Shown here piece by piece: positions 1 to 52,133 of a stretch of 64,000 bases of DNA. The notes below the pieces were generated by a model. That model searched no databases. It had not been told where the DNA came from and was given only the letters and a program-made list of their open reading frames with translations. This stretch comes from Acidimicrobiales bacterium. GTDB taxonomy: Bacteria > Actinomycetota > Acidimicrobiia > Acidimicrobiales > Bin134. Both the position numbers and the translations under genes were made by a program. Numbering within the stretch: position 1 is the stretch's first letter; every line of letters starts with the position of its first letter. The stretch covers positions 2,396,909-2,460,908 of the forward strand of contig OZ220474.1 in the NCBI GenBank assembly GCA_965115985.1, read 5' to 3'.

Positions 1-2
1 TA

Positions 3-179
3 TGGCCAGTGATTCTGGTTGCCGGTTTGGTCGTCATGGGGTTCTGTGTCCTTGAGGGGCTGGCCATCGGTGATGATCTGCACGAGGCCGGCAGTCGGGT
101 TGGCTCCGGCCTGTTCGTCGCCTATGCCGGAGGGAGCACGGCCTCGGTGGGCGGTGTGCTGCTCAGACCGAGCCGGTGA
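3..179 (+). CDS. 3' end of a hydrophobic membrane protein (5' partial, runs off window)
   Basis: Frame 3 is open from the window edge to TGA 177-179 and reads WPVILVAGLVVMGFCVLEGLAIGDD... It has no in-window start, so it is absent from the ORF track. Confidence 0.3.
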   Translation, partial: WPVILVAGLVVMGFCVLEGLAIGDDLHEAGSRVGSGLFVAYAGGSTASVGGVLLRPSR

Positions 180-316
180 GGTTCACCCGCCTAATAGCCG
201 GCAACTCCACCTCGAAGGGGCACAACCAGCATCACCGTAAGCGAGGTTCACCCGCCTAATAGCCGGCAACTCCACCTCGAAGGGGCACAACCAGCATCAA
301 CAGGTTCACCCGCCCC
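178..316. repeat. Tandem repeat, 65/58-bp unit x2.3
   Basis: gaggttcacccgcc... restarts at 178, 243 and 302. The array begins on the stop codon of the partial upstream CDS and fills the gap to the convergent kinase gene. Confidence 0.9.
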
Positions 317-334
317 ATCTTGGACGAGCGGGAA

Positions 335-2584
335 CTAGGCCGGGCGGGTCAGCGGCAGTTCCACCACCATCTCGGTGAACTCGCCCGGTTCGGTGTTGAC
401 GGTGATGGTGCCACCATGCTCCCGAATGATGTCGTTGGACAGGGCCAGGCCCAAACCGGTGCCCTCATTGGTGGGTTTGGTGGTGAAGAAGGGGTCGAAG
501 ATTTTCTCGGCCACATCCGGGGGGATGCCGTTTCCGTTGTCCCTCACGCTGAGGATGGCGCTCTCCTCGGTACGGCGGGTCCTCAAAACGATGGTGGGGG
601 AGAAGTCATCGGCATCGGAGGAGCCCGATTCGATCAGTTCCTTCTGCTTCTTGTTGGTGGCGTAGCCGGCATTGGCCACGAAGTTGAGAAACACCCGGCC
701 CAGGTCTTGGGGCACGACCTCGAGTTGCCCCATGTCCGGGTCGAACTCCTCGTCCATGGTGACCTGGAAATCGGGATCCTGGGCTCGAGCACTGTGAAAG
801 GCCAGCAGGGAGTGCTCATGGATCAGATCGTTGATGTTGGTGAGCTGGGTCTCGCCCCCGCCCCGGCCCATCAGGAGCATGTCCTGGACGATCCGGTTGG
901 CCCGGCTGCCGTGCGATTGAATGCGTTCCAGGTTGTCGTTCAGGTCCTGGTTGATCTCCTCCAGCAGGTCACGCTGCTCGTCGGTGAGGTCGTCGATGAA
1001 CTCTTCCACTATCTCGGTCATCTCTTCGAGCAATTCGGCCGATGCCGCGGAGAAGTTGTTGATGAAGTTGAGCGGATTGCGGATCTCATGCGCCACTCCG
1101 GCGGTGACCTCTCCCAGCGCGGCCAGCTTCTCCCGGGCGACGATCTGATCCTGGGCTTGGCCCAACTCCTCCAGCACGGCTTGAAGTTCGTTGTTGCGCT
1201 CGCCCAGTTCCTGGGCCAGTTCCTCCACCAGGTTCAACCGCTGAATCTCCAGGGCGTGGCGACGGAACACCTCAAGAGCCGAGGCCATCTCCGCGATCTC
1301 GTCGCGACCACTGACCTCCACCTCCTCCTCCAACTCCCCCTTGGCCAGTGTTCGCATGCGACTGGACAGGCGGCCGATTCGGCGCAGTAGGACACGGCCC
1401 ACGAAGAGCCAACTGATCAGGCCGGCACCGATGACACCGATAACGCTGATGATCACCAGCAGGATTCGGGCAGTGCTGATGGTTTGCGCGGAGTTCTCGG
1501 TGGCCTCGTCGGCCCCGGCCCGGGCGGCGTCCACGAGGGCGTTGACCTCTTCCAGAAGTTCGACCGCGATGGTTTGGTTCTGAGCCAGAAGGTTGTTCTG
1601 GCGCTCGATGATCTTCAGGCGGTCGACCGATACCTCAAAGGCGCTTTGCTCCCCGTTGCCGAGGGCCAGTAGCTGGTTCACCGCTGATTCCAGTCCCGGG
1701 ATCATTTCCGACGCGGCCACCGCGGACAGGCTGATCCGGATGCGATCCTCCACCGACTCGAAGCTCTCCTGTAGAGGTTCGACGAACTCGGCGGTGGAAG
1801 CAATCAGAGCGCTGCCCATCAATTCGGATGCTTGGGCAACGTCGGCCTGCAACGCGTTGAAGTGTCGATAGAGGAGCAGCTCGTCTCCCGATGTGCGAGT
1901 GGCGGCATCGGTGGGCTCGGAAACGAAGTCTCGATATCCGGTTACCTGGAAGAAGAGTTGGTCGTCGATGGCGGGCAGAATGATGCTGTTGGCTTGATCG
2001 CTCAGAGCCGGAATCTGGTTCTGGAGTTTTTCGATCTCTCCGGTCAAGCCGTAGTAGTGGGGCATATCGGCAGTTATGGTCGTGATGTTCGTCTCCAACG
2101 TTCTGGCGGATTCCCGGATTGCTTCAACGTGTACGTCTCCCGGGTTCTCATCGGCGAGGAGTTCAAAATTCTGCTTGAACTCCTGTTGGGCAGTGGTGAC
2201 TTCTGCGGAGATGGTCGAGAATTGATCGGGGGAAGACGTGGTTAGTCTGGGAGCGGCTGCCACCAGAGCGCTGCTCAATTCGGCCAGCCGAAATGCGCCG
2301 GCCAACTCGGGTACGCTTTCCTGGTTCACTCGATTCTGGCTTCTGCTTACGTTGGTGAACGAGATCCAACTCACGACGCTGGCTACGATGGTCAGAACAA
2401 CGGCACCGAAGATCCCGGCATACAATTGAGTGGAAATCCGTCGATGGGCGGCCGGACGTTGAGCGCCGGTGTCGGGGTTCTCGATCTCGGGGGTTTGTGG
2501 GTCGGGTGTGGCGGTCACGGGCTGGTACTCCCCGGTGTCGGGGTTCTCGATCTCGGGGGTTTCTGGGTCGGGTGTGGCGGTCAC
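335..2584 (-). CDS. Sensor histidine kinase (2 TM, ~300-aa extracytoplasmic domain, HAMP, HisKA, HATPase_c)
   Basis: H-box HEIRNPL, DNGNGI and GTGLGL ATP-lid motifs, a HAMP-like segment after the second TM. GTG start 2584 overlaps the upstream TGA (GTGA). An alternative in-frame GTG lies at 2518 in the second repeat copy. Confidence 0.9.
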   Translation of the reverse strand: MTATPDPETPEIENPDTGEYQPVTATPDPQTPEIENPDTGAQRPAAHRRISTQLYAGIFGAVVLTIVASVVSWISFTNVSRSQNRVNQESVPELAGAFRLAELSSALVAAAPRLTTSSPDQFSTISAEVTTAQQEFKQNFELLADENPGDVHVEAIRESARTLETNITTITADMPHYYGLTGEIEKLQNQIPALSDQANSIILPAIDDQLFFQVTGYRDFVSEPTDAATRTSGDELLLYRHFNALQADVAQASELMGSALIASTAEFVEPLQESFESVEDRIRISLSAVAASEMIPGLESAVNQLLALGNGEQSAFEVSVDRLKIIERQNNLLAQNQTIAVELLEEVNALVDAARAGADEATENSAQTISTARILLVIISVIGVIGAGLISWLFVGRVLLRRIGRLSSRMRTLAKGELEEEVEVSGRDEIAEMASALEVFRRHALEIQRLNLVEELAQELGERNNELQAVLEELGQAQDQIVAREKLAALGEVTAGVAHEIRNPLNFINNFSAASAELLEEMTEIVEEFIDDLTDEQRDLLEEINQDLNDNLERIQSHGSRANRIVQDMLLMGRGGGETQLTNINDLIHEHSLLAFHSARAQDPDFQVTMDEEFDPDMGQLEVVPQDLGRVFLNFVANAGYATNKKQKELIESGSSDADDFSPTIVLRTRRTEESAILSVRDNGNGIPPDVAEKIFDPFFTTKPTNEGTGLGLALSNDIIREHGGTITVNTEPGEFTEMVVELPLTRPA

Positions 2585-2599
2585 GGGCTGGTACTCCCC
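2468..2599. repeat. 66-bp tandem duplication x2 spanning the SBP-stop/kinase-start GTGA junction
   Basis: ggtgtcggggttctcgatctcggggg... begins at 2468 and 2534 with 1 mismatch. It encodes the duplicated TATPDP(E/Q)TPEIENPDTG N-terminus of the kinase. Confidence 0.95.
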
Positions 2600-4014
2600 A
2601 GAGCACTAGCGGATCGGTAGCGGCCATTGGCATCCAGGACGGTCAAAAAGACGGCATCCGAACCTTGGTTGTCCACTGCCCGGTCTGCTTCTTCGCCGAA
2701 GTCGAGCACGAATCCGTCGATGCTGATCCGACCGGCACCCAATAGGTTCTCCAGGAAGCAGTCGCGGGTCGGATCGGAACCGCACGCTTCCAGTCCGGCT
2801 ATGGCCAGCCTCCCGGCCAGGTATCCCTCGAGGGACACGAAACCGGGTTCGGCTTCGGGGTCGAACCCGGCCAGGGCTCGGGTATAGGAGGCCACGACCG
2901 GGATGGAGTTGTCGTGGGGGAACGGAACCACCTGGGTGACGTAAACACCCTCCCCGCCCGTCCCCAACTCGGTGGCCAACGCGTTACTGCCCACGAAGGA
3001 GACCGTCATGAATATGGGATCGAAGCCGATGTGGCGGGCCCAGGATATGACGGCGGCGACCGGTTGATAGGCCCCCACCAGGATCACTGCCTCGGGATCG
3101 CCCCGTCTCAGGTCGAGCAGCGCCGACTTCACTGCGGTGGTGTTGCGGGGGTAAACGCCGGTGGCCACCGGGACCATTCCTCGCCGCCCCAGTGCGGCCA
3201 ACACCCCGTTGTAACCGGCCCGCCCGAACGAGTCGTCCTGGAACATCACCGCGATACGACTGATGCCGGCATCGGTGGTGAGACGTTCGACCATCTCCTC
3301 GGTCTCCTGGGCGTAGGAGGCCCGGAGGTTGACGATGTTGTCCTGACCGTCGTTGCGCAAAAAGCCCGCTCCGGTGAACGGAGCTACGTAGGGGACCCCG
3401 GCATCGGCTGCCACCGGGGTGGCCGAACGCGAAGTCGGTGTGCCCACCGCGCCGATGAGGGCGAAAACCCGCTCTTCGTCGATGAGGGCCTGGGTGTTGG
3501 TTATGGCCGCCTCGGGTTCGTAAGCGTCGTCGCGGGTTGTCAACTCGAGGCGACGTCCGTTCACCCCGCCCCGGCGGTTCACCTCCTCGAAGGCTGCCTG
3601 GATGCCGAGCCTCATGTTGATGCCCAGTTCCTGAGCCGGCCCGCTCAGGGCTGCCGACTGCCCGAAAACCACCCGGTCGTCGAAAACCCCGAGTCTTCCC
3701 GGGTCCACCAAGGTCGGTTCGGGAGTCGGCGGGGGCGTTGAAGGAGGAACCACCGGATCGGACCCCCCCGATCGACATCCCGATGCGATGAGGGCCAGCG
3801 CGGCGATGACGAGTCCTACTGGTCGCAGGGCGCGGGGTTTGATGACGAGTCCTACTGGTCGCAGGGCGCGGGGTTTGATGACGAGTCCTACTGGTCGCAG
3901 GGCGCGGGGTTTGATGACGAGTCCTACTGGTCGCAGGGCGCGGGGTTTGATGACGAGTTGGAGTTCCCTCGGTTTGGTGGACAGGTTGTTTTGCTGGATT
4001 GTAGTGGTGTTCAT
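2581..4014 (-). CDS. Periplasmic substrate-binding lipoprotein, LivK/Peripla_BP_6-like; native 5' end severed by IS3, current start inside the IS end
   Basis: The mature part resembles branched-chain amino-acid binding proteins. Lipobox LIASGC is preceded by four KPRALRPVGLVI repeats. ATG 4014 lies in the IS terminal repeat. The long track ORF 2581..4593 is read-through into the IS. Confidence 0.75.
   Translation of the reverse strand: MNTTTIQQNNLSTKPRELQLVIKPRALRPVGLVIKPRALRPVGLVIKPRALRPVGLVIKPRALRPVGLVIAALALIASGCRSGGSDPVVPPSTPPPTPEPTLVDPGRLGVFDDRVVFGQSAALSGPAQELGINMRLGIQAAFEEVNRRGGVNGRRLELTTRDDAYEPEAAITNTQALIDEERVFALIGAVGTPTSRSATPVAADAGVPYVAPFTGAGFLRNDGQDNIVNLRASYAQETEEMVERLTTDAGISRIAVMFQDDSFGRAGYNGVLAALGRRGMVPVATGVYPRNTTAVKSALLDLRRGDPEAVILVGAYQPVAAVISWARHIGFDPIFMTVSFVGSNALATELGTGGEGVYVTQVVPFPHDNSIPVVASYTRALAGFDPEAEPGFVSLEGYLAGRLAIAGLEACGSDPTRDCFLENLLGAGRISIDGFVLDFGEEADRAVDNQGSDAVFLTVLDANGRYRSASALGSTSP
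3805..3958. repeat. 36-bp in-frame tandem repeat x4.3 (left half of an array split by IS3)
   Basis: Unit gatgacgagtcctactggtcgcagggcgcggggttt encodes VIKPRALRPVGL. The array ends at the IS3 target-site duplication. Confidence 0.95.
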
Positions 4015-4880
4015 GCGGCTTGGTGGTGGGTGTAGGTCTGGGCGGGGGTGCGGTGGCCGAGTGAGCTGTGGTGGCGTTGGCGGTTGTGGAACACTTCGAT
4101 GTAGTCGAACAGGATGGTTCGGAGTCGTGTGTGGTGGAGGTGTTCCCAGGGGCCGTGGATGTGGCGGATTTCTTTTTTGAGGGTGGCCCAGAACGATTCC
4201 ATGGCGGCGTTGTCGTAGCAATCTCCGACGCTTCCCCAGGAGCCGACGAAGTCGGCTTGGGCGAGGCGGTCGCTGAACGCCATGGAGGTGTATTGGGTTC
4301 CGTGGTCGCTGTGGTGGATCAGTCCGGGTTCGGGTCGGCGGCGGGCGATGGCCATGGTCAAGGCGTCGACGACGAGGTCCGTGGTTTGGTGCTCGGCGAT
4401 GGACCAGCCCACCAGGGTGCGGTCGCAGAGGTCCAGGATTCCCGCCAGGTGGACTTTGGTGTCGGCGCAACCGAACGAGGTTATGTCGGCCACCCATTTG
4501 CGGTCGGGAGCCTCGGCGGTGAAGTCCCGGTCCAGCAGGTCCCCGGCGGGCACTGTTTTGGCGCCGGGATCGCGGCGACGACGGTGGGAACACGCCCCCA
4601 CCAGGCGGTTCGCTCGCATCAGGCGGGCCACCCGGTTGCGGCCCACGCGGTGACCGCGGCGGCGGAGCTGCTCGTGGATCCTCGGGGAGCCGTAGGTGCG
4701 TCTCGAGGTCTGGTGGATCTCGCGGATCTCGACCAAAAGCTCGGCGTCGGAGGTCTCACGCCTGGACGGGCGTCTTTTGGCCCAGGCGTAGAACCCGGAC
4801 CGGCACACCCCGGCGACGCGGCACAAATCGGTGACCCGGTACTCGGCTCGGTGGTCGTGGACGAACCGGTAGCCGATCAC
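4011..4880 (-). CDS. IS3 transposase OrfB (DDE integrase core)
   Basis: rve-type sequence (HSDHGTQYTS, CYDNAAMESFWATLK). It overlaps orfA by 4 nt. Stop TGA 4011-4013 overlaps ATG 4012-4014 of the SBP fusion start. Confidence 0.9.
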   Translation of the reverse strand: MIGYRFVHDHRAEYRVTDLCRVAGVCRSGFYAWAKRRPSRRETSDAELLVEIREIHQTSRRTYGSPRIHEQLRRRGHRVGRNRVARLMRANRLVGACSHRRRRDPGAKTVPAGDLLDRDFTAEAPDRKWVADITSFGCADTKVHLAGILDLCDRTLVGWSIAEHQTTDLVVDALTMAIARRRPEPGLIHHSDHGTQYTSMAFSDRLAQADFVGSWGSVGDCYDNAAMESFWATLKKEIRHIHGPWEHLHHTRLRTILFDYIEVFHNRQRHHSSLGHRTPAQTYTHHQAA

Positions 4881-5173
4881 CGGTTCGTCTCCCTCGCGAA
4901 ATACGCGGCCGCCTTCCCCAGAATCTCCAAATCGATCTCCTGCTGAGCCACCCGCCTGCGCAACCTCTTCAACTCCTCACGCTCGGACACGCTCAACGCC
5001 TCGGGATCGGCCGCTCGCTCGCGTCGCTCACGATCGGCCTTGACCCAGTTCCACAGCGTTCCCTCGCTGATCCCCAACGACCGGGCCACCCCAGCAACCG
5101 AACGACCCGACGACACCGCCAACGCCACCGCCTCACGACGAAACTCAGGCGGATACTTCGACACACGACCCAT
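4877..5173 (-). CDS. IS3 transposase OrfA (HTH)
   Basis: MGRVSKYPPEFRREAV... with a leucine-zipper-like end. An AGGAGG site lies upstream of ATG 5173. The track ORF extends to 5239, but that part is the IS end. Confidence 0.85.
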   Translation of the reverse strand: MGRVSKYPPEFRREAVALAVSSGRSVAGVARSLGISEGTLWNWVKADRERRERAADPEALSVSEREELKRLRRRVAQQEIDLEILGKAAAYFARETNR

Positions 5174-5238
5174 ACGAGCCTCCTTCCCCAGGGACCGAAC
5201 CCCCATAATCAGGTGTCCACCAAACCGGGGCAACTCCA

Positions 5239-5411
5239 AGTCCTACTGGTCGCAGGGCGCGGGGTTTGATGACGAGTCCTACTGGTCGCAGGGCGCGGGG
5301 TTTGGGGACGAGTCCTACTGGTCGCAGGGCGCGGGGTTTGATGACGAGTCCTGCTGGTCGCAGGGCGCGGGGTTTGGGGACGAGTCCTACTGGTCGCAGG
5401 GCGCGGGGTTT
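5239..5411. repeat. 36-bp tandem repeat x4.8 (right half of the IS-split array; alternating gat/ggg variants)
   Basis: Same unit as 3805-3958. Joining 3958 to 5242 restores a seamless 9-copy array. Confidence 0.95.
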
Positions 5412-5432
5412 CCTCCGGCCGGCGGGTTTCAC
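5242..5432 (-). pseudogene. Detached original 5' end of the SBP gene
   Basis: GTG 5432 overlaps the TGA of the upstream kinase gene (GTGA) and reads MKPAGRRKPRALRPVGLV... through the repeats until the IS3 insertion. Confidence 0.7.
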
Positions 5433-5860
5433 GACTCGGGAAGCACGACCAGCTTGAGGTGGTTGCGGCCGTGCTCGTTGTGGTACTCCAAATCCTGGCC
5501 CAAGGTCCGCACCAGATAGAGCCCCAGACCACCGATGGGGCGCTCGGCCAGTGACAACGTCAGGTCGGGCTCGGGGGCGTCCTCGAGTGGATTGAAGAGG
5601 GCTCCGTCGTCGGTCACGCGGATGGTCAGCGCTCCGTCGTCGGATTCCAGCTCGAGGTCGATGGTCGTGAGTCCGCTGGTGTCCCCATGGGTGAGGGTGT
5701 TGAGCACCAGTTCTTCCAGTATCAGATTGGCCCGCATGGTCAACGTCACCGGCCAGTTCTCCGCCTCGGCCATTTCTTCCAGGACATTCTCGATCTCCGG
5801 CAGGACGGACGAGGGTTCACCCTGTTCCAGAGGGAGAGAGAAGCGCAGCGATCGCTGCAT
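5429..5860 (-). CDS. RsbW/SpoIIAB-like anti-sigma-type serine kinase (HATPase_c_2)
   Basis: 143 aa with NTLTHG and GGLGLYLV motifs, in an operon with STAS and PP2C genes. Confidence 0.8.
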   Translation of the reverse strand: MQRSLRFSLPLEQGEPSSVLPEIENVLEEMAEAENWPVTLTMRANLILEELVLNTLTHGDTSGLTTIDLELESDDGALTIRVTDDGALFNPLEDAPEPDLTLSLAERPIGGLGLYLVRTLGQDLEYHNEHGRNHLKLVVLPES

Positions 5861-6103
5861 GTCAGCAGCTAGCTCCCACGGTCGGCGCGAGGATCGAGTG
5901 GCTAGCTCCCACGGTCGGCGCGAGGATCGAGCGGCTACCTCCCACGGTCGGCGCGAGGATCGAGCGGCTACCTCCCACGGTCGGCGCGAGGATCGAGCGG
6001 CTACCTCCCACGGTCGGCGCGAGGATCGAGCGGCTACCTCCCACGGTCGGCGCGAGGATCGAGCGACTAGCTCCCACGGTCGGCGCGAGGATCGAGGCGG
6101 CCA
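5861..6103. repeat. 33-bp tandem repeat x7 filling the whole intergenic gap
   Basis: Unit ggctacctcccacggtcggcgcgaggatcgagc with contiguous copies and no spacers. It carries the 80-codon ORF 5862..6104. Confidence 0.95.
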
Positions 6104-7255
6104 TCAGGGGCGGCGAAGCGTCAGACAGGTGATGTCGTCGGACTGGGGGGCGTCGCCCGTGAAACTCCTCACACTCTCGAACACCGCCTGGTTGGCGGCC
6201 GACGCGCTGTCGGGGGGGTGACCGTTGAAGACCTCGGTCAAACGATGCATACCGAACTGTTCGCTGGTGGCGTTCATGGCCTCGGTGACCCCATCGGTGA
6301 ACAACACGATGGTGTCCCCCGGGGCCAACGTGATCGTCTCCTGGGAGTAGGTGATGTCGGGAGCGACCCCCAGGGCTACACCATCGGTGAGCGGCAACTC
6401 GGTGACCGTGCCGTCCCTGCCGACCAGAAGCGGGGGGTCATGGCCCGCGGTCGAATAGGTGAACGACCCGGTGTCCGGGTTGAACAGGGCATAGATCAAT
6501 GTCACGAACATGAAGGTGGGGTTGTCCTGATGGAGTTGGTTGTTGACCTCGCCCAGCACCATTTCCGGGTCTCGGACACCGATGGCCGCCCCTTTCAGTG
6601 CGGTACGGCTGGACATCATGAACATCGACGCGGGGATTCCCTTGTCGGACACGTCGGCCACCACGAGGCCGATTTTGTCCTCGAGCGTGAAATAGTCGTA
6701 GAAGTCGCCGCCGACATTGCGAGCCGGTTCCATGTTGGCGGCCACTTCGTATCCGTCGTTGGCCGGGGGGGTCTTGGGCAGGATGGATTGCTGGAGTTGG
6801 CTGGCAATGCTCAGCTCGTTCTGAAGGGCCACCAGTTGGTCTCGGGACGACAACGCCTCCCGCCACTCGGCCAAGTGTTCCAAGGTGCGGGTGATGGTGA
6901 TCTTGAGGTCGTCGAAGTCGATGGGCTTGGTTACGAAATCGAAGGCCCCCCGGTTCATGGCGGTGCGGATGTTGTCCATGTCACCGTAGGCGGAGATGAT
7001 CACCGCCCTGAGATTGGGATCAACCCCGGGAAGCTGCTGGAGCAGGGTGAGGCCATCCATCTTGGGCATGTTGATGTCCGACAGCACCATATCGATGGTC
7101 GGATCGGCGTTGAGCTTTTCCAACGCCTCCACCCCATTTTGAGCAAAAACGAACTCGTATTCGTTGGAGCGGATCTTGCGGCGCATCCTCTGAAGGATCA
7201 GAGGTTCGAGGTCCGGTTCGTCGTCGACGACCAGGATTCTGTAGGGATGATGCAA
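6104..7255 (-). CDS. Response-regulator receiver fused to PP2C/SpoIIE phosphatase (RsbU-like)
   Basis: N-terminal REC domain (VVDDEPD...DINMPKMDG) and a C-terminal PP2C-type domain (GGDFYD, DGVTEA). Confidence 0.9.
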   Translation of the reverse strand: MHHPYRILVVDDEPDLEPLILQRMRRKIRSNEYEFVFAQNGVEALEKLNADPTIDMVLSDINMPKMDGLTLLQQLPGVDPNLRAVIISAYGDMDNIRTAMNRGAFDFVTKPIDFDDLKITITRTLEHLAEWREALSSRDQLVALQNELSIASQLQQSILPKTPPANDGYEVAANMEPARNVGGDFYDYFTLEDKIGLVVADVSDKGIPASMFMMSSRTALKGAAIGVRDPEMVLGEVNNQLHQDNPTFMFVTLIYALFNPDTGSFTYSTAGHDPPLLVGRDGTVTELPLTDGVALGVAPDITYSQETITLAPGDTIVLFTDGVTEAMNATSEQFGMHRLTEVFNGHPPDSASAANQAVFESVRSFTGDAPQSDDITCLTLRRP

Positions 7256-7259
7256 GGGA

Positions 7260-7589
7260 TTACCCCTGTTTGGCGTCTTCCACCGATGGAAATACGTTGA
7301 TGATCTGGTCGAAACCGCTGATGCGGAATACGTCGCCCACGGTCTCCGACAACGAGCAGATGCTGAAGGACTTGTTCTGCTTGTCGAGGCCCTGGGCCGC
7401 CATCAGCAGTACCCGCAACCCGGCACTGCTTATGTATTCGAGGCCGCCGAGATCCAGGATGACCTTCTGGTCGCCGGGATCGAACAAGCCCTGGAGGGAC
7501 TCGAGGAGATCGGATGCGTTGGATCCGTCCACCCGGCCGGAAGCATTGACGACCAGTACATCACCATTGCGATCATGACTCAATTCCAT
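7260..7589 (-). CDS. STAS-domain anti-sigma-factor antagonist (RsbV/SpoIIAA-like)
   Basis: MELSHDRNGDVLVVNASGRVD...YISSAGLRVL. ATG 7589 is preceded by AAGAGAGG. The track start 7649 is probably too long. Confidence 0.85.
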   Translation of the reverse strand: MELSHDRNGDVLVVNASGRVDGSNASDLLESLQGLFDPGDQKVILDLGGLEYISSAGLRVLLMAAQGLDKQNKSFSICSLSETVGDVFRISGFDQIINVFPSVEDAKQG

Positions 7590-7674
7590 GGCTGGGGCCT
7601 CTCTTTTCTTATTCCGTGGCCGAATATTTTGCCAGCCAGCACTATACACAACCCACCGGGCTCAACGGGTAGCG

Positions 7675-7828
7675 GCGACCGGCAGCGCTGGTGGGGGCGA
7701 GGGGTCAGCGGGGTTGGGGCGCGCTGGTGGGGGCGAGGGGTCAGCGGCGACCGGCAGCGCTGGTGGGGGCGAGGGGTCAGCGGGGTTGGGGCGCGCTGGT
7801 GGGGGCGAGGGGTCAGCGGGGTTGGGAG
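7675..7828. repeat. 36-bp tandem repeat x4 (72-bp higher order) copying the 3' end and stop of the thiolase-like gene
   Basis: The 26-nt core gcgctggtgggggcgaggggtcagcg occurs at 7685, 7721, 7757 and 7793, with alternating 10-nt linkers. The last core contains the real stop at 7813-7815. Confidence 0.9.
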
Positions 7829-10445: not shown

Positions 10446-10491
10446 GCTCCCCCCTTTGCTGCCGCGCACGTTAGCGCGGCCGGCACTGGGG

Positions 10492-34779: not shown

Positions 34780-34804
34780 TCCGGCTACTTGAGAGGAACT
34801 GCCT

Positions 34805-35862: not shown

Positions 35863-35891
35863 TTCGAGGGGGTGGCGGGTAGGGTGGGGGT

Positions 35892-40997: not shown

Positions 40998-41010
40998 TCT
41001 GCCGGGTGGG

Positions 41011-41076: not shown

Positions 41077-41084
41077 GAGGGGCA

Positions 41085-42976: not shown

Positions 42977-43318
42977 TCAGCCGTCGCCGAGCAGTCGGTT
43001 GACCATTCGGGCCATCGGGCCGGGTCGGGGAGGTTCGTAGTCGTCGGGCACCAGGTGGGGGGCGTAGTGGGCCAGGGTGGTCATTACCCGGTCGGGTGTG
43101 GGGTTCACCATGGCGGTGTCACCCACCACCACGGTGGGCACCGTTTCGTTGCCGGCGGCCACCGATCGGACAAAGGCGGCCGCCGAGGGATCCTCCCAGA
43201 TGTTGTGCATGTCCATGTGTACGCCGAGTTCGTCCAGCTTGCGGTGCAGGTGAGCGCAGAACCCGCATCCCGGTCGCCAGTAGAACGTGATGCCGCCCAC
43301 CGGGGAGTTCGAGCTCAC
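42977..43318 (-). CDS. Glutaredoxin-like protein (mycoredoxin type, CGFC)
   Basis: ITFYWRPGCGFCAHL...TVPTVVVG. The GTG start at 43318 lies within a GTGA. Confidence 0.8.
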   Translation of the reverse strand: MSSNSPVGGITFYWRPGCGFCAHLHRKLDELGVHMDMHNIWEDPSAAAFVRSVAAGNETVPTVVVGDTAMVNPTPDRVMTTLAHYAPHLVPDDYEPPRPGPMARMVNRLLGDG

Positions 43319-43432
43319 GGCACGTAGGGCAGGGCCAGCACCACCCGCTCGGCCAGGTCGCGGTCGCCGCTCACGGCACGTAGGGCAGGGCCAGCACCAC
43401 CCGCTCGGCCAGGTCGCGGTCGCCGCTCACGG
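43314..43432. repeat. 56-bp tandem repeat x2.1 of the GTGA junction and last 19 codons of the DinB-like gene
   Basis: ctcacggcacgtagggcagggccagcaccacccgctcggccaggtcgcggtcgccg occurs at 43314 and 43370, with a partial copy at 43426. Confidence 0.95.
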
Positions 43433-44168: not shown

Positions 44169-44314
44169 CCTGGTGTCCTTTTCATCAATGGATCGTCCGT
44201 CATGTCTGCCGGCCGCCTGGTGTCCTTTTTATCAATGGATCGTCCGTCATGTCTGCCGGCTCTTCATCCGGGGGCCGCTTCCGACGTGTAGCCCTTCATC
44301 CGGGGGCCGCTCAT
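44165..44314. repeat. Composite repeat (47-bp x2 and 33-bp x2) carrying five ATGA overlaps
   Basis: cctggtgtcctttt.atcaatggatcgtccgtcatgtctgccgg occurs at 44169 and 44216. cttcatccgggggccgct occurs at 44263 and 44295. Confidence 0.9.
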
Positions 44315-45042: not shown

Positions 45043-45083
45043 TATCCCACCCGTCCGCCAGGATCATCAGCATCGGGATCGTC

Positions 45084-45246
45084 CCCGCTCGGATCGTCGG
45101 AACCGGGACCGCCGGCACCCGGATCGTCCCTATTCGGATCGCCGGCGCTCGGATCGTCCCGTCCCTATTCGGACCGCCAGAACCGGGATCGCCAGCGCTC
45201 GGATCGTCCCGTCCCTATTCGGACCGCCAGAACCGGGATCGCCACC
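45084..45246. repeat. 48-bp tandem repeat x~3.4 in a divergent promoter region
   Basis: gcgctcggatcgtcccgtccctattcggaccgccagaaccgggatcgcca occurs at 45146 and 45194, with degenerate copies upstream. Confidence 0.85.
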
Positions 45247-45262: not shown

Positions 45263-46204
45263 GTGGTGGCTGCCATTTCTGTTCGCGGTATGCGCCGAAC
45301 CTACGGAGAGGTGGTGGCGGTCGACTCGCTCGACCTCGAGGTGGCCGAGGGGGAGGTCTACGGATTTCTGGGCCCCAACGGCGCCGGTAAGTCCACTGCG
45401 GTGAGGATGCTGTGTACGTTGGTGTCGATGACCTCGGGGACGGCCTCGGTCGCCGGTTACGACGTGGCCACCCAGGGCGATCGGGTGCGGCTCAGCATCG
45501 GGGTGGCCCTTCAGGACGCGGCCCTCGACGGCAAGCTCACCGGGCGGGAGACGCTGACCCTTCAGGGCCGGTACTACGGTCTGGAGCGGGCATCCATCAC
45601 CGCTCGCATGGAGCAGTTGGCCCCCCTGCTGGAGATGGATGCCATCGACCGGCGAGTGTCCACCTACTCGGGGGGTATGAAGCGCCGACTGGATCTGGCC
45701 GCCGCGCTGATGCACAACCCCAAGGTTCTGTTCCTGGACGAGCCCACCACCGGACTCGACCCCATCAGCCGAGCCACGGTCTGGGAACAGATCCGGCGGT
45801 TGAATCGTGAGCTGGGCATGACCATCTTCCTCACCACCCAGTACCTGGAGGAGGCCGACATGCTGACCCACCGGGTGGGGATTTTGAACGAGGGTCGCCT
45901 CGTGGCCGAGGGAACGCCCGATGAGCTCAAGCGCACGGTGGGCTCCGACGTGGTGGTGGCCCGGGTGGTCGGCAACCCCGAGGTGGCGGCCGCGGCCATC
46001 GGCGAGGTGCCGGGCATAAGCAACGTGGAGGTCTACGAGAACGAAGTGAGCGCGGCCACCGGCGACGGGGCCTCGGTGATAAGCCCGGTGGCGGTGGCGT
46101 TGTCGGCGGCCGGAGTGGAGGTATCCGACCTGTCGATCCACCCCACCACGCTCGACGACGTGTTCCTCGAGCTCACCGGAGCCCGGATAGAGGTGGAGGA
46201 ATGA
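45263..46204 (+). CDS. ABC transporter ATP-binding protein (DrrA/ABC-2 type); start approximate
   Basis: GPNGAGKST, LSGGMKRRL and LFLDEPT motifs. The start is probably GTG 45263/45266 just before ISVRGMRRTYG. Confidence 0.85.
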   Translation: MVAAISVRGMRRTYGEVVAVDSLDLEVAEGEVYGFLGPNGAGKSTAVRMLCTLVSMTSGTASVAGYDVATQGDRVRLSIGVALQDAALDGKLTGRETLTLQGRYYGLERASITARMEQLAPLLEMDAIDRRVSTYSGGMKRRLDLAAALMHNPKVLFLDEPTTGLDPISRATVWEQIRRLNRELGMTIFLTTQYLEEADMLTHRVGILNEGRLVAEGTPDELKRTVGSDVVVARVVGNPEVAAAAIGEVPGISNVEVYENEVSAATGDGASVISPVAVALSAAGVEVSDLSIHPTTLDDVFLELTGARIEVEE

Positions 46205-46285
46205 GCGACCCGGCCTGCGACTCGTGCCAGGAGGCGGTGCGCTGCACCGGAGCCCGGATAGAGGTGGAGGAATGAGCGACCCGGC
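46174..46285. repeat. 71-bp-period duplication (41-nt core x2) of the ATGA ATPase-stop/permease-start junction
   Basis: caccggagcccggatagaggtggaggaatgagcgacccggc occurs at 46174 and 46245. Confidence 0.95.
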
Positions 46286-47090
46286 TCGGACGGCCCGGCC
46301 GGTCGCCTCGGTGATCGAGGCTCGCCCGTCGGGGTTCTTCACCGACATGGCCTCGGTGGCCAACCGGGCGCTGCGACTGCTGCCCCGGGACCTGGAGGCG
46401 ATCATTCCGGCCATGCTGGTGCCCCTGTTCTTTTTGGTGGTCACCATCGGGGCCATCCAGAACCTGGCCTCCGAGGCGGTTTCGGGGATCGACTACAAGG
46501 CGTTCCAGCTTCCGGTGGCGATAATGACCGCAGTCACCGGCATGTCCCGGGCCAATTCGCTCGTGATCGACATCTCCGACGGTTACTTCGACCGCCTGCT
46601 GATGACGCCGGTGAACCGCCATGCCCTGTTGCTGGGGCTGATGGTGGCCGACTTCACGCTGTTCGTGGTCATGTCGGTGCCGGTGATCGTGCTGGGTTTC
46701 ATCATCGGTGTGGGCTTCGGGGCCACCGGGTTTCCGGGCCTGGTGGTGTTCGTGTTGTTCGGTGCATTGTGGGGGCTGGCCTACACCGGCTTTCCCTACG
46801 CCATCGCGCTTCGCACCGGGAACCCCGCCGCGGTGAACTCCAGCTTCCTGCTGTTCTTCCCCTTCATGTTTTTGACCACCGCCTGGGTGAGCCGAGAGGT
46901 GATGACCGACTGGCTGGCCGCCATCACCTGGTTCAACCCCATGACCTACGCCCTGGAGGGCATGCGCTCGCTGTTCTCCGGCTGGAACGGCTGGGCCCTG
47001 GCCCGGGCCCTGCTGGCCATAAGCTCGGTAGGCCTCCTGGCCCAAACCCTCGCCTTCCGATCCCTACGAGGCCGCATCCGCCGAGGCTGA
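46272..47090 (+). CDS. ABC-2 type transporter permease
   Basis: Six hydrophobic segments. ATG 46272 (MSDPARTARP) is in the second junction copy. Confidence 0.8.
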   Translation: MSDPARTARPVASVIEARPSGFFTDMASVANRALRLLPRDLEAIIPAMLVPLFFLVVTIGAIQNLASEAVSGIDYKAFQLPVAIMTAVTGMSRANSLVIDISDGYFDRLLMTPVNRHALLLGLMVADFTLFVVMSVPVIVLGFIIGVGFGATGFPGLVVFVLFGALWGLAYTGFPYAIALRTGNPAAVNSSFLLFFPFMFLTTAWVSREVMTDWLAAITWFNPMTYALEGMRSLFSGWNGWALARALLAISSVGLLAQTLAFRSLRGRIRRG

Positions 47091-47091
47091 G

Positions 47092-47198
47092 GCGGATTGC
47101 GGACCGCCGGCGGGTACCTGCACACACGGCCCGTACAGGCCAGTTTCTCCCAAGGTTGCTCCCCCCAGAATCAGGTGTCCACCGAACCGGGGCAACTC
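47092..47198 (-). mobile_element. Remnant of an IS3-family end (terminal repeat plus first orfA codons)
   Basis: cccc.a.aatcaggtgtccacc.aaccggggcaactccaa matches 5196-5238. The similarity continues over the orfA start region (cacacg.ccc.tac). Confidence 0.7.
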
Positions 47199-47202
47199 CA
47201 AC

Positions 47203-47231
47203 TTGACACGGGGGGGGGGGGGGGGTAGTTA
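47203..47231 (+). promoter_or_regulatory. TTGACA-c-G16-TAGTTA element (candidate promoter with homopolymer spacer)
   Basis: A -35-like TTGACA (47203-08), a 17-nt spacer made of c plus 16 G (47210-25), then TAGTTA, 11 nt before ATG 47243. An identical 28-nt core lies inverted at 61200-61227. Confidence 0.4.
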
Positions 47232-47242
47232 TACAGACCGCT

Positions 47243-47509
47243 ATGACAAGTCCCTACGACAGTCCGGTTGCCAAGCCCCCCAATGGATTGGCGACGGCAG
47301 GATTCATACTTTCCTTCTTTACGCTTCTCCCGTTCTTCGGGTTCTTCGTCTTCATCCTTAGCGTGATCTTTTGTAGTATCGGGTTGCGTCGGGCCAACGC
47401 TGAGGGCCGTCAGGGCAAAGGTCTGGCGATAGCCGGCCTCGTAATCAACATAGCCACGCTGCTTCTCACAATCATTTTCGTCATAGCGATACTAGGGGCA
47501 GCCTCGTAA
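47243..47509 (+). CDS. Small membrane protein, DUF4190-like (2 TM)
   Basis: NGLATAGFILSFF... and GLAIAGLVINIATLLLTIIFVI. Lower G+C than the flanks. Confidence 0.7.
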   Translation: MTSPYDSPVAKPPNGLATAGFILSFFTLLPFFGFFVFILSVIFCSIGLRRANAEGRQGKGLAIAGLVINIATLLLTIIFVIAILGAAS

Positions 47510-47605
47510 TAGCGATTTTTGCTGATTGCGCGGCTATTACACAGCTTGGGTGGCAGGAGGTTGTGCGGCCCGGGTTGATGGGATAGGTGTCGTCAAGCTG
47601 GCTGG

Positions 47606-47714
47606 GGAACATCCGGCTTATTGCTCATGGTTCGGTTGGCTCTCTCGCATGATGGTTCCCGCCCGGCTCAGGCTGCGCAGGGAACATCCGGCTTATTGCT
47701 CATGGTTCGGTTGG
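47606..47714. repeat. 74-bp-period duplication (35-nt core x2) of the 3' end of the second DUF222-HNH gene
   Basis: ggaacatccggcttattgctcatggttcggttggc occurs at 47606 and 47680. Confidence 0.9.
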
Positions 47715-49020
47715 CCCGGTTGGTGTAACGCTTTTTGGCCGGGGGTTTGAGTTTGTGCTGCCCTTCGGGTTCGGTGGTCACGGTGTAGCCGTGTTTGTGG
47801 ACCTTGGTGTGGCAGGTGGGGCATAGCAGTACCAGGTTGGTGATGTCGGTGGGTCCGCCGTGTTCCCACCACAAGATGTGGTGGGCCTCACAAGCAGTGG
47901 CCCGCAGCCCGCAGCCGATGCAGTGCTTGTCCCGGGCGTAAAGAGCCAGCCTCTGTGCTTGTGTGGCTGATCGTTGTTTTCTGCCCAGGTACAACGGCAC
48001 CCCGTCGCCACCAAAGATGGCCGGTATCACCCCGGCATCGCAAGCGATCCTCCGTAGATCGTCGATGCCGATAGGGGTTCCGTCGATCAGCCCGGCGTTC
48101 TTCAGTCGCCCGGTCAACTCGTCGTAGTCAACCGTGACCAGCAATGTCGTGGCCTGCACGGCGACATCCTCGGTGGCAGCGTCCCCGCCGGTGGCAGTAT
48201 TCCCGCTGGAAGCAGCGTCCCCGCCGGTGGCAGCAGCACCCCCGTCGGAAACAGCATTGCCGCCGCCGGTGCTGGCGGGGGTTTGGGTGATGAGCGCGAC
48301 CAGAGCGTCGGCGTTGCGTTGTTCGTGGGTGCGGTCGTTGCCTGCTTTGAAGTCGTCTCGGAACATGCGGTCGTGGAGGTCGTCCAGCGCGGTTCTCACT
48401 CGCTCTCCGGAGAGGCGGTCGAGTTCGGCGTGGATGATGATCATGTCGTCGTCGCCGTCGAACACGCCGGCTCTCCGGCGTTTGCGTTGTTGTTCCAATC
48501 GGCTGGTTCCGTCGTCGCCGCATCGTTGGTTTTCGTGGCGGTCCACGGTTTTTTTGAACTGGTCGAAGTCCTGGGTTATGGCCAGGGCGATGAGCTCGAA
48601 CTCCTGGTCGTCGCCCAGGGGCACTCGTTGGTGGGATTCGCCCATCAGTCGGGCGTGGTCCATGGGTATCCATCCGTCCTGCACTGCGTCCAGTGTGGTG
48701 GGCAGTGCTTTGAGCACTTCCGCGGTCTTGGCCTGTTTGCGGGCCCGATAACGACCCAGGCCGAACTGGCGGCACACATCGGCCACCGCGTCATCGCCCT
48801 CCAGGTCACCCAGGCGACCCAGCAAGGCGGTCAGGTAGCCGTCGAGCCCGCGGCGGGCCGCGTCGGCTTGGAAGATCAGCTTGAGCAGATCCTCGGTGCC
48901 CAGCTTGGTGGGGGCGACCTGGTTCGCCTTCGAGCAAACACACGAGCAAGCACACCCGGCCTCCCGGCCTCCCGGTCCGGCCTGCTCGGCGTCGTCCCTG
49001 GTCACAGCGTCGATTTCCAT
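47668..49020 (-). CDS. DUF222 + HNH endonuclease protein, second paralog
   Basis: Same architecture as 32188..33534, with CIGCG...HHILWWEHGGPTDITNLVLLCPTCHTKVH. Confidence 0.85.
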   Translation of the reverse strand: MEIDAVTRDDAEQAGPGGREAGCACSCVCSKANQVAPTKLGTEDLLKLIFQADAARRGLDGYLTALLGRLGDLEGDDAVADVCRQFGLGRYRARKQAKTAEVLKALPTTLDAVQDGWIPMDHARLMGESHQRVPLGDDQEFELIALAITQDFDQFKKTVDRHENQRCGDDGTSRLEQQRKRRRAGVFDGDDDMIIIHAELDRLSGERVRTALDDLHDRMFRDDFKAGNDRTHEQRNADALVALITQTPASTGGGNAVSDGGAAATGGDAASSGNTATGGDAATEDVAVQATTLLVTVDYDELTGRLKNAGLIDGTPIGIDDLRRIACDAGVIPAIFGGDGVPLYLGRKQRSATQAQRLALYARDKHCIGCGLRATACEAHHILWWEHGGPTDITNLVLLCPTCHTKVHKHGYTVTTEPEGQHKLKPPAKKRYTNRANRTMSNKPDVPCAA

Positions 49021-49027
49021 ACCCCAC

Positions 49028-49033
49028 AGTCTA
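49028..49033 (-). promoter_or_regulatory. -10-like TAGACT box, leaderless arrangement
   Basis: TGTCACAGGTGTCGATAGACT-N7-ATG(49020). Confidence 0.45.
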
Positions 49034-49149
49034 TCGACACCTGTGACAGTATCCCCCCTGAATCATCTTCAGCCATAAGAATCAACGTAAAAAATATAGA
49101 AATATCCAGAATTTAATCGGTTTGAATGACAAAAACCTCCTACCTCTCC

Positions 49150-49186
49150 AGCAAGGCCCCGGAACCAGGAGCCCACCAAACCGGGG
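49150..49186 (-). mobile_element. Degenerate IS3-end-like fragment
   Basis: caggagcccaccaaaccggggcaacccc compared with caggtgtccaccaaaccggggcaactcc at 5212-5238. Confidence 0.4.
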
Positions 49187-49216
49187 CAACCCCATGGCAA
49201 CCCAAATATCGGCTTC

Positions 49217-49356
49217 GCGATGTTCGGGTCGTGGGGCCACGGCCAGCGTCCGGGTGGCGCACTGCCGGCCTGCACCGCGATGTTCGGGTCGTGGGGCCAC
49301 GGCCAGCGTCCGGGTGGCGCACTGCCGGCCTGCACCGCGATGTTCGGGTCGGGCAG
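49217..49356. repeat. 60-bp perfect tandem repeat x2.3 upstream of the NfuA-like gene
   Basis: cgcgatgttcgggtcgtggggccacggccagcgtccgggtggcgcactgccggcctgcac occurs at 49217 and 49277, with a partial copy at 49337. Confidence 0.95.
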
Positions 49357-49400
49357 GTCGGGGTCGAGTTCGGGCGGGTGGCTCGGGTAGGCTGGTCGGC

Positions 49401-50046: not shown

Positions 50047-50275
50047 CCCCGCCCGTCCGGGACGTGACCCGGATATGAGTCGTTCGGTCCGAGGCCGCCC
50101 GTCCGGGACATGACCCGGATGTGAACTGCCCGGTTCGGGCCCCGCCCGTCCGGGACATGACCCGGATGTGAACTGCCCGCTTTGGCCCCGCCCGTCCGGG
50201 ACGTGACCCGGATGTGAGTTGCCCGCTTCGGGCCCGTCCGTCCGGGACGTGACCCGGATGTGAGTTGTCGGCGCG
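50047..50275. repeat. 46/47-bp tandem repeat x5
   Basis: cgtccgggac(a/g)tgacccggat(g/a)tga... occurs at 50054, 50100, 50147, 50193 and 50239. Confidence 0.9.
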
Positions 50276-50294
50276 GCCTGGCAGAATGGCGGGC

Positions 50295-51992
50295 ATGTTC
50301 GATCTTTTGATTCGTGGGGGCACGGTTGTGGACGGGACGGGATCCGTTCCCAGGGTTGCCGATGTGGCGGTGGCCGATGGGGTGGTGGCCGCGATCCAAG
50401 CCGGTCTCGTCGCCGAGGCCACCGAGGTGATCGATGCCACCGGACGCTACGTGACCCCGGGGTTCGTGGACGTGCATACCCACTACGACGGCCAGGCCAC
50501 CTGGGATCCGATCATGGCCCCCTCGGCCTGGCACGGGGTGACCACGGTGGTGATGGGCAACTGCGGGGTGGGTTTCGCCCCCGCCGATCCCGATGCCCAC
50601 GACTGGCTGATCGAGCTGATGGAGGGGGTGGAGGACATCCCCGGGGCGGCCCTCCACGAGGGGATCACCTGGCGATGGGAGACCTTCCCCGAGTACATGG
50701 ACGAGCTCGAACGGCTCGACCGCACCATCGACGTGGCCGCCCAGGTGCCCCACGGGGCGGTGCGGGCCTACGTCATGGGCCAGCGGGGGGCCACCACCGA
50801 GGCGGCCACCGCGCCCGAGCTGGCCGAGATGGCCCGCATCGTGGGCGAGGGAACCGGTGCCGGTGCGGTGGCGTTCTCCACCAACCGATTGCCGCTGCAC
50901 ACCTCGCTGTCGGGGGTGCCGGTGCCGGGTACCTTCGCCGACCATCAGGAGCTGGCCGCCCTCGTGGGGGCGCTTTCGGGCCGGTCGCTGGTGGAGGTGG
51001 TGCCGGCCGGCTCCATGGGCGAGGATCCCGACGCCCCCATCCGGGAGGTGGAGCTGTACCGGCGGTTGAGCCTCGAGACCGGTCGAGCCATCACCTTCAC
51101 CATGGTGCAGATCCACGCCAACCCCGGCCAGTGGCGACGGCAGATGGACATCGTGGAGCGAGCCAACGCCGAGGGGGCCAGGCTGGTGCCCCAGGTGCAG
51201 GGCCGCCCCGGCGGGCTGCTCGCCGGATGGGATCAGTTCAACCCGTTCGCCAAGCGCCCGTCCTACCAGGCACTGGGCCACCTGCCGCTGGAGGAACGAT
51301 TGACCGAGCTGCGCCGCCCGAAGTTGCGTGCGGCGATCCTGGCCGAGGATATTCCCGGCGATCCGGCCATGGGCATCCTGCGCCATTCCCTGCACGCCAC
51401 GTTCCCGTTCGACGACGGCCCGGTGTTCGAGCCCGACCCCGCCGATTCGGTGGCGGTTATGGCCGACCGCACCGGCACCGATGTGCTCGAGCTTTTGTAC
51501 GACCTGATGTGCGACCGGGGGATGCTCCAGGTGTTCTTCACCGGCTACCACCACGGCGACCTCGAGGACCTGCGGGAGATGATGGTTCATCCCATGACCG
51601 TGGTCGGGTTGGCCGACGGCGGGGCCCACTGCCGGGTGATCTCCGACGCCAGCCTGCCCACCTACGTGCTCCAGCACTGGGTGCGCGACCGCCGGCGAGG
51701 ACCGAAGCTGTCCATGGCCGAGGCGGTGAGGCTGTTGACCTCCGAACCGGCCGAGCTCTACGGCTTCGACGACCGGGGCGTGCTGGCCACCGGCAAGCGG
51801 GCCGACCTCAACGTCGTCGACCTCGAGGCCATGCGCCTCCACCTGCCCGAAGTGGTGGCCGACCTTCCCACCGGGGCCCGCCGCCTGCTCCAGAGCGCCG
51901 ATGGTTACGACGCCACCGTCTGCGCCGGCGAGGTCACCTTCCGCCACGGCCACCCCACCGGTGCTCGTCCCGGAACCCTCATCCGGGGCTAG
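50295..51992 (+). CDS. N-acyl-D-amino-acid deacylase (D-aminoacylase) family amidohydrolase
   Basis: [16 protein letters not shown]...[13 protein letters not shown]. Confidence 0.85.
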
Positions 51993-52042
51993 CCCCATCC
52001 CCCGAGCAGTCGCGCCCGGCATCGACCCTCTTGTTTTGACCG

Positions 52043-52133
52043 CCCCTTGTCGCCATGAAGTGCCCATGATGACCATTCGTCGGAGTCGGCGACCGATGCC
52101 GAGCCCGGCATTGATCCCCTTGTCGCCATGAAG
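52043..52133. repeat. 73-bp-period duplication of the helicase start region
   Basis: ccccttgtcgccatgaag occurs at 52043 and 52116. The decoy ATG 52055 opens only MKCP*. Confidence 0.85.

Follow-up and report, generated by a model that had tools for sequence, protein, structure and literature searches.

Why should a bacterial chromosome carry short tandem duplications at about two thirds of its gene junctions, with a different unit at nearly every one? The question is raised by a 64,000-nt stretch of an Acidimicrobiales bacterium (OZ220474.1), hereafter the window, which is chromosomal DNA of an Acidimicrobiia bacterium with a G+C content of 63-68%. Tandem Repeats Finder (TRF), a repeat finder and our own offset scan, covering positions 1-56000, identify 33 local tandem array clusters with periods of 24-75 nt and 1.25-7 copies. 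They are named here by their start coordinate and lie on the minus strand unless marked (+). This corresponds to 5.9 arrays per 10 kb, or about one per 1.7 kb; five dinucleotide shuffles contain none, and 1.28 Mb of unrelated bacterial loci contain 0.125 per 10 kb. All 28 loci listed by an earlier, sequence-only reading are recovered within a few bases, with nearly all of their periods; the exceptions are 47605, with a period of 75 and not 74, and the locus listed at 45084, which is a 15-nt sub-repeat with a 50-nt higher-order unit (45058-45244). The offset scan adds 13170, 25263, 44262 and 48176. Including 44 kb of a sister genome, Candidatus Poriferisocius sp. (ERZ25068685), the DNA read points to one best explanation, to which we assign a probability of about 0.6: in this lineage, short stretches (units of at most 75 nt) are duplicated locally in tandem at an unusually high rate, and selection has filtered the survivors.

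The arrays are concentrated at gene boundaries. The gene map draws on codon usage, Pfam matches and gene calls from syntenic relatives. On it, 19 arrays overlap with a start or a stop codon (2.4 expected), 8 are purely intergenic (2.5 expected) and 6 are gene-internal (28.1 expected). The expectation is that of single units placed at random on the sequence with its arrays collapsed, and so few internal arrays occur in 0 of 5000 permutations; the boundary enrichment that had been proposed is therefore present in the window. About 24 of 38 junctions bear an array by hand count. The earlier statement that almost all units contain a stop or a start codon is somewhat overstated, as this holds for 19 of the 33 arrays, while the concentration at boundaries, about eight-fold over expectation, stands.

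Arrays that do lie inside genes respect the reading frame. The period is a multiple of 3 in six out of six internal arrays of the window, and in 13 of 13 when seven more from the sister and from the related locus L086 are included, so that the claim of almost none inside genes out of frame was exact. In frame are found, within the AdnA-like gene, a period of 48 in about 3.7 diverged copies (17211-17390), without counterpart in the alignment with the relatives L001 and L002, and 66 x 3.1 copies at 99% (18628-18829), which is single-copy in both. A weak repeat in the AdnB-like gene (13170-13309) has a 26-nt arm repeated 114 nt apart. The others are a low-complexity repeat of period 24 in the N-terminal region of the GyrB-like gene (25219-25370), an array of period 72 in the gene 38997-40997 (40431-40533, +; arm 31, middle 41) and one of period 18/36 within a DUF222-HNH gene (48171-48244). 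Some of the host proteins are long. The AdnA-like protein (16062-19577), which belongs to a DNA-end-processing enzyme, has 1171 aa against the usual 1054-1075 in relatives, the excess coming apparently from the in-frame arrays; the GyrB-like protein has 743 aa against 694-697, about 46 aa longer, apparently from its 24-bp repeat; the AdnB-like protein (12589-16065) has 1158 aa against 1105-1106 in three relatives and 1169 in the sister.

Such a distribution is what a selective filter would leave. Duplication events would arise everywhere, and selection would purge the frame-breaking ones. A duplication spanning a stop or a start codon would leave both genes whole; inside a gene, two thirds of the events would shift the frame, and only in-frame copies at tolerant spots would survive. 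At co-directional junctions, most survivors would have a period that brings the duplicated start codon into the frame of the duplicated stop codon. The boundary bias would then be mainly survivorship. By our own arithmetic, a uniform input would imply a tolerance of in-frame internal duplications of about 12% relative to boundary and intergenic ones, a figure that seems plausible. The position of the stop codon along the unit ranges from 0 to 97%, without a fixed offset (hand count from coordinates); as the filter predicts, this argues for filtering rather than for a targeted cut.

The units are unrelated to each other. An all-against-all blastn-short comparison of the 33 units gives a single pair at E<=0.01, 3805 and 5239, which are the halves of one array split by an insertion sequence (IS), and neither Rfam families nor tRNAs are found in the window. 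The view that the units are no dispersed mobile repeat is thereby borne out, and a dispersed-repeat family is rejected. Instead, alignment with the relatives shows the units to be copies of adjacent single-copy sequence. The closest public genomes are complete chromosomes labelled 'uncultured Acidimicrobiales' and genomes named Candidatus Poriferisocius sp. Five of the fetched loci (L001, L081, L082, L084 and L085) show synteny with the window, their nucleotide identity being roughly 75-88%, and their BLAST alignments with it are interrupted exactly at the array positions. In locus alignments, the array sequence is single-copy in relatives at 18628, 27913, 36540, 43313 and 46174 (the last two in L081 and L082); at the remaining aligned loci, the relatives have a short junction and the array is without counterpart. 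The proposal that units copy their own locus, present once in relatives, agrees with this check.

The compactness of the related genomes underlines the point. In four relatives, of about 80% nucleotide identity, the arrays are missing and the junctions are compact: their called genes are spaced by -8, -7, -4 or -1 nt or by a few bases, compared with 50-240 nt in the window. Spacer DNA, summed by hand over 14 shared junctions, is most extensive in the window, with 1598 nt against 943 nt in the sister and about 361 nt in L085. The same scan gives 3.9 and 3.2 arrays per 10 kb in the two sister loci (L083 and L087), 1.7 in L086, 0.9 in L082 (coding repeats), about 0.45 in L085, L001 and L081, and 0 in L084.

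The sister, whose proteins have 65% and 75% identity to the two window proteins searched, is occupied at largely the same junctions: of the arrays in L087, five of seven lie on junctions that bear an array in the window, as do all six junction arrays of L083. Units and periods differ: the nucleotidyltransferase-fpg junction has 51 nt in the window against 34 nt in the sister, and the RR-HATPase junction has 33 nt against 71 nt. Since shared junctions hold different units, the events are recurrent and not inherited as such. This overlap, together with the occupation of about two thirds of all junctions and with a separate partial copy that L001 carries at the end of the AIM24-like gene (the 36540 locus), could also be read as targeting: duplication would be favoured at boundaries by replication stalling or R-loops at ribosome-free transcripts, or by stalling at termination and initiation sites, and the bias would be mutational, not selective. 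We regard this as unlikely. At the ancestral junctions, the genes overlap (-8 to -1 nt) or stand a few bases apart, with hardly any untranslated DNA; the units are mostly coding sequence of both neighbours, and the boundary may fall anywhere within the unit (hand count). Moreover, in-frame arrays are found deep within genes (17211, 18628, 40431), and both the multiple-of-3 rule and the junction frame bias bear the mark of selection.

The duplications are not only local, lineage-specific and recurrent, they are also turning over. According to TRF, copy identity spans 100% to about 75%, and fresh arrays stand beside decayed older copies at 28769, 11528, 41011, 10490 and 44169-44311. At the fpg junction (10490-10721; periods 71 and 67, 3.3 copies), the array comprises the fpg 3' end and stop and a decayed copy of the spacer and ChsH2-like start. 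The ancestral gene end and spacer persist at its downstream edge, and the middle of the unit matches the ancestral Shine-Dalgarno and start region at 10/13 positions by eye, consistent with an old duplication across stop and start that was re-amplified at a later time.

A further sign of age is the array split by a mobile element. Its left half (3805-3958; 36 x 4.3, 100%) encodes KPRALRPVGLVI repeats in a lipoprotein signal peptide, and its right half (5239-5411; 36 x 4.8, 94%) lies beyond an IS3-family element (3959-5238), the two together making a 36-bp array of about nine copies. The element, with orfA (4877-5239) and orfB (4011-4880), has HTH_Tnp_1 and rve domains; it ends in inverted repeats of 26 nt and is flanked by an AGT target duplication. 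It parts the start of the Peripla_BP_6 lipoprotein (GTG at 5432, overlapping the upstream TGA) from the lipobox and body (2581 to about 3800), and the gene is probably inactivated or re-started. Several arrays are 100% identical between copies, as would be expected if they were produced by the assembly or polishing of a long-read metagenome. However, the decayed copies and the IS inside an array make such an artefact very unlikely, the least likely of all the explanations considered here. Diverged copies and higher-order structure occur in many arrays, the IS has its own target duplication, and frame rules (multiples of 3, relay frames) are beyond any assembler. The sister's contig, recorded separately and labelled 194x (ctg6961_194x_c), shows the same phenomenon with different sequences; from the contig names, we read contigs such as this one as circular long-read metagenome contigs.

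The frame rule extends to the junctions. In what we call a relay, the duplicated upstream start opens a small open reading frame (ORF) ending on a stop that overlaps the next start, mostly as ATGA. At 43313-43432 (56 x 2.14, 100%), a GTGA junction is duplicated with 8-nt CCGTGAGC flanks, and the relay ORF has 19 aa with spacings of -4 and -4. At 46174-46285 (+; period 71, arm 41, middle 30), the ATGA junction of an ABC ATPase and permease is duplicated, with a 24-aa ORF, again at -4 and -4. The relay at 12509-12623 (period 71, arm 44, middle 27), which copies the AdnB-like stop and the nucleotidyltransferase start, has 28 aa and spacings of -16 and -16; at 29890-29968 (period 61, arm 18, middle 43), the 8-nt overlap ATGGGTGA of the SnoaL-like stop and SDR start is copied, and a hand-read 22-aa ORF starting at 29900 is spaced by -8 on both sides. 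Longer chains exist. Two adjoining arrays at 44169-44311 (47 x 2, and 32 in partial form) hold four ATGA-linked mini-ORFs from the upstream stop to the downstream start (44311 to 44168, -4 each), and at 20827-21114 (65 x 4.4, 100%), in the leader and first 12 codons of a phosphotransferase gene, four ORFs of 20-22 aa are chained by the ATGA at the end of each. The copied helicase start at 52043-52133 (+; period 73, arm 18, middle 55) gives MKCP* and a 21-aa ORF, both ending in ATGA, linked to the true ATG at 52128. With 44262 and the 71-nt unit of 10490, counted as a relay though its stop and start do not overlap, these make up the window relays; chains at 7286, 23062 and 12894 belong to the sister.

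Altogether, relays are found in 12 of about 20 start-containing duplications of the window and sister, as classified by hand. Five others (2466, 28769, 5868 and two in the sister) keep the frame of the true start or lie in frame within a bridging ORF, and two are out of frame (the 67-nt variant at 10490, and 37696). A relay requires an open frame and one of three period classes; the probability of at least 12 relays in 20 is 0.013 for a null of 1/3 and 0.0008 for a null of 0.247. The excess over chance is suggestive rather than decisive. Ribosomes could traverse a chain of relay ORFs to reach the true downstream start.

Relay geometry kept more often than chance is also what an adaptive role would produce, with a variable number of junction repeats tuning or switching the downstream genes (contingency loci, operon uncoupling) and with functional relay ORFs. 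A bridging mini-ORF of 17-18 aa at the RR-SpoIIE/HATPase_c_2 junction likewise speaks for it, being present in relatives free of arrays (L085, 22377-22435; L086, about 23015-23070). It has TGATG where the upstream gene stops and TGA-N-ATG where the downstream gene starts, a geometry that the window and sister retain, and in the window, the 80-aa bridging ORF from the RR-SpoIIE stop (6104) to the HATPase_c_2 start (5860) holds an in-frame array (5868-6096; 33 x 6.9). Still, we hold an adaptive role to be improbable, more so than targeting. Arrays are equally found in convergent spacers and at 3' ends that serve no downstream gene (178, 32115, 36540, 47605), the units are not conserved between the sister genomes, four related genomes manage without arrays, and mere tolerance also predicts preserved coupling.

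How selectively filtered duplications would arise in the first place is best approached from the clean cases. At 43313, each of the three unit boundaries bears the 8-nt direct repeat CCGTGAGC (minus strand). Slippage during replication, or a switch of template, between short direct repeats would convert ABA to ABABA, after which arrays would expand, contract and erode. This is the signature of the yeast rad27 (FEN1) mutant: ABA to ABABA with A of 1-21 nt and B of 1-91 bp, together with a bias towards insertions and with hotspots that are hit repeatedly (PMC5677150). The window resembles it, as well as microhomology-mediated tandem duplications, in that adjacent sequence is duplicated, with units up to about 100 bp (here 24-75 nt), an insertion bias, recurrent sites and, in the clean cases, short flanking direct repeats. 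Unlike the known cases, which are sub-clonal or from laboratory mutants, those of the window are fixed in a wild genome at about 1 per 1.7 kb, and they often reach 3-7 copies, with arms to 57 nt and a sharp 75-nt limit. For the bounding repeat of 1-21 nt, the counterpart in the window is the extra partial copy, of 2-17 nt in about half of the arrays (such as 2, 3, 4, 5, 6, 8, 9, 10, 16 and 17 nt) and of 18-57 nt in the rest. Duplication mediated by direct repeats therefore fits the origin and the size, the arm length not fully. A defect in flap processing or in slippage suppression is our leading guess for the high rate in this lineage.

The partial form deserves separate attention. Eight loci (12509, 27913, 29890, 40431, 44262, 46174, 47605 and 52043) have, rather than two full copies, an A-B-A structure: an exact arm A of 18-47 nt at a repeat distance of 32-75 nt, around an unrelated middle B. 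In addition to those described above, they include the leader of the GyrA-like gene (27913-28025; period 66, arm 47, middle 19), with one A in L001 and L002, and the stop of the second DUF222-HNH gene (47605-47715; period 75, arm 36, middle 39). In the convergent spacer at 178-299 (+; period 65), running from the stop codon 177-179, an exact 57-nt arm and a second arm enclose 8 nt. Across loci, the arms thus measure 18-57 nt and the middles 8-55 nt; in ten A-B-A loci the two trade off, with a sum of 61-75 nt (one has 32). One reading is that of an old 61-75-nt duplication, eroded save for a block kept identical by continuing slippage or conversion, as suggested by graded cases such as the sister's 23062. 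The structure may also be a fixed-length insertion, partly templated and partly not. CRISPR-like ectopic spacer integration is dropped, as arm and middle lengths vary, and so is the idea that 60-75-nt units are dimers of about 35 nt, which is true of 7671 (36/72) alone, the others being at chance level.

The unrelated middles might also recall footprints of mobile elements, with arms as target-site duplications and middles as excision remnants, possibly linked to the DUF222-HNH genes or the IS3 family. The window does contain two DUF222-HNH insertions and IS ends, and in L001, a 1.7-kb insertion bordered by junction copies parts the SnoaL-like and SDR genes. By eye, this insertion carries a MazF-like toxin and a truncated ATPase-like ORF; at its ends (6530-6560 and 8225-8260), the ancestral overlapping junction stands in two copies of about 24 nt, which agree with each other at roughly 80%. 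Nevertheless, footprints are a very improbable source. A target-site duplication would have a fixed length and a shared terminal sequence, and both fail, with arms of 18-57 nt and middles of 8-55 nt that are unmatched. The middles resemble neither each other, nor IS ends, nor any fetched sequence; the target duplication of the IS3-family element in the window is 3 bp long, and many arrays are plain multi-copy tandem repeats.

Several observations weigh against the explanation by unusually active duplication followed by selection. The periods end abruptly at 75 nt, with half of them at 60-75 nt, and simple slippage predicts no such limit; between 76 and 200 nt, there are only 96 (2 x 48) and the weak 114. 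Exact partial copies of 18-57 nt, in about half of the arrays, are far above the microhomology of slippage. The A-B-A middles match nothing in local alignment with either flank, judged against shuffles, in exact matches within the window on both strands, or in blastn-short against the fetched loci. The relay statistic depends on about 20 events classed by hand. The overlap of six out of six in L083 (hypergeometric by hand, about 0.009) could mean hotspots, and the input would then not be uniform. The genes polA and others of replication lie outside the window, and 'genome-wide' is an extrapolation from 64 kb and from 44 kb of the sister. Finally, no conspecifics were found: among 5.8 billion sequences, nothing but the window's own exceeds 75% identity to the two searched window proteins, and a metagenome scan gave relatives at 72% identity only.

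Joining the size limit to the relays leads to a bolder version of the favoured explanation, which we put forward tentatively and think somewhat doubtful: a wild lineage with a genome-wide signature like that of flap-endonuclease deficiency and with a size ruler, whose output is selected into locus-specific, MIRU-like relay ORFs at most operon junctions. A speculative candidate for the ruler is a long 5' flap on a single SSB tetramer, which would fit size groups of 30-50 and 56-75 nt.

A close known analogue is the mycobacterial interspersed repetitive unit (MIRU), and the likeness is better than it appeared from the sequence-only reading. MIRUs contain a small ORF coupled to the downstream start at a spacing of -4 (ATGA/GTGA), their insertion affects expression little, and they are repetitive sequences, apparently mobile (PMC12548453, a 2025 review). 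The window shares the ORFs whose stop overlaps the next start, the property described there, with inter-locus homology absent. Tandem units of tens of bases occupy co-directional junctions at 2466, 5868, 10490, 11528, 12509, 28769, 29890, 43313, 44169, 44262 and 46174; relay ORFs at -4 ATGA/GTGA spacing are read from the sequence at 43313, 44169, 44262, 46174, 20827 and 52043, and MIRU-like coupling at 29890 and 12509 has spacings of -8 and -16. In contrast to MIRU units, which are homologous across loci, those of the window are derived from their own locus; the density is far higher than that of MIRUs, with a few dozen loci per 4.4 Mb; and the host belongs to the Acidimicrobiia and is not mycobacterial. 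Because homology between loci is absent and many arrays lie at 3' ends, in leaders or within genes, they are not members of the MIRU family. In array form alone, there is a likeness to bacterial minisatellites (variable numbers of tandem repeats), head-to-tail units of 10-100 bp that keep the frame inside genes; typical genomes have tens of such loci, and the 5.9 per 10 kb of the window are to be compared with the measured background of 0.125.

Short tandem duplications and MIRU-type junction repeats are thus both known. In the literature searched, we found no description of a genome with self-derived arrays at about two thirds of its junctions, nor of a nearest sister that is alike with different units while other relatives are without, and no paper on tandem repeats in Acidimicrobiia or Poriferisocius or on such an array density there. 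If the phenomenon is genome-wide, it would be a natural experiment on the selective filtering of structural mutations (frame rules, stop-start coupling) and a plausible route for the origin of MIRU-like coupled mini-ORFs. It would also point to a difference in replication or repair between closely related symbionts, supply possible strain markers for an uncultured sponge symbiont, and be a warning for annotation, as duplicated starts and stops yield false N-terminal extensions and false small genes. Should the flap-deficiency-like version be true, MIRU-type elements would be seen arising de novo, with translational coupling as a measurable selective constraint.

The remaining arrays complete the picture. 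Many occupy 3' ends. In the thiolase gene, the stop codon is contained in every copy (7671-7826; period 36/72), and the nucleotidyltransferase 3' end and stop are repeated at 11528-11748 (51 x 4.3, 100%), where older copies reach 11811. A DUF222-HNH gene has its 3' end and stop in two copies (32115-32259; 71 x 2.0, 92%), and the AIM24-like gene has its last 11 codons and stop repeated (36540-36723, +; 38 x 4.8). At 38858-38975 (+; 40 x 2.95), a TAG opens each unit, and the first one now terminates the transglycosylase-like gene; diverged copies of the final 17 nt and stop of the gene 38997-40997 follow at 40980-41078 (+; period 16/32). At starts and junctions, the GTGA overlap of the binding-protein stop and histidine-kinase start is duplicated in frame (2466-2599; 66 x 2.0, 98%). 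The start region of a glycosyltransferase is repeated in frame, with decayed older copies upstream (28769-28880; 42 x 2.7), and the ferrochelatase start and leader form an array without a clean relay (37696-37864; period 62/64 x 2.7). Among intergenic sequences, the 15-nt sub-repeat at 45058-45244 lies in a divergent region, with no strand assigned and no counterpart in L081 and L082. An array upstream of a NifU-like gene (49216-49351, +; 60 x 2.27, 100%) is followed by another from the NifU-like stop to an amidohydrolase start (50047-50267, +; 46/47 x 4.8, 87%), also without counterpart in L081 and L082.

The gene content identified by the Pfam scan comprises a histidine kinase, a periplasmic-binding lipoprotein, an AdnA/AdnB-like nuclease-helicase pair, a GyrB/GyrA-like pair, Fpg, ferrochelatase, an ABC exporter, a UvrD-HRDC helicase, two DUF222-HNH genes, the IS3-family element and three RCC1-repeat proteins. 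Both DUF222-HNH genes lie in insertions. One insertion of 3.8 kb (32062-35877), absent from L001, L081 and L082 and of lower G+C (0.55 in the 32-36 kb bin), holds the gene 32188-33540 and, at 34130-35408, long inverted repeats in a nest. The other, of 2.3 kb (47090-49380), is absent from L081 and L082 and holds the gene 47668-49020; it is flanked by two solo copies of the right end of the IS3-family element in the same orientation (47163-47200 and 49157-49194).

Eukaryote-like repeat proteins such as RCC1 are typical of sponge symbionts. The three RCC1-repeat proteins of the window are encoded on the minus strand (55316-57469, 58693-60588 and 62169-63920) and are built of 111-bp (37-aa) repeats, up to 14 in each. 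The first two, at least, are encoded within a segment of 6.4 kb (54935-61364) that L081 and L082 lack. In L002, the region 1-7300 holds long arrays whose unit is a 66-bp coding repeat; judging from period and consensus, we take these for leucine-rich repeats. They represent another eukaryote-like repeat protein and have no relation to the junction arrays.

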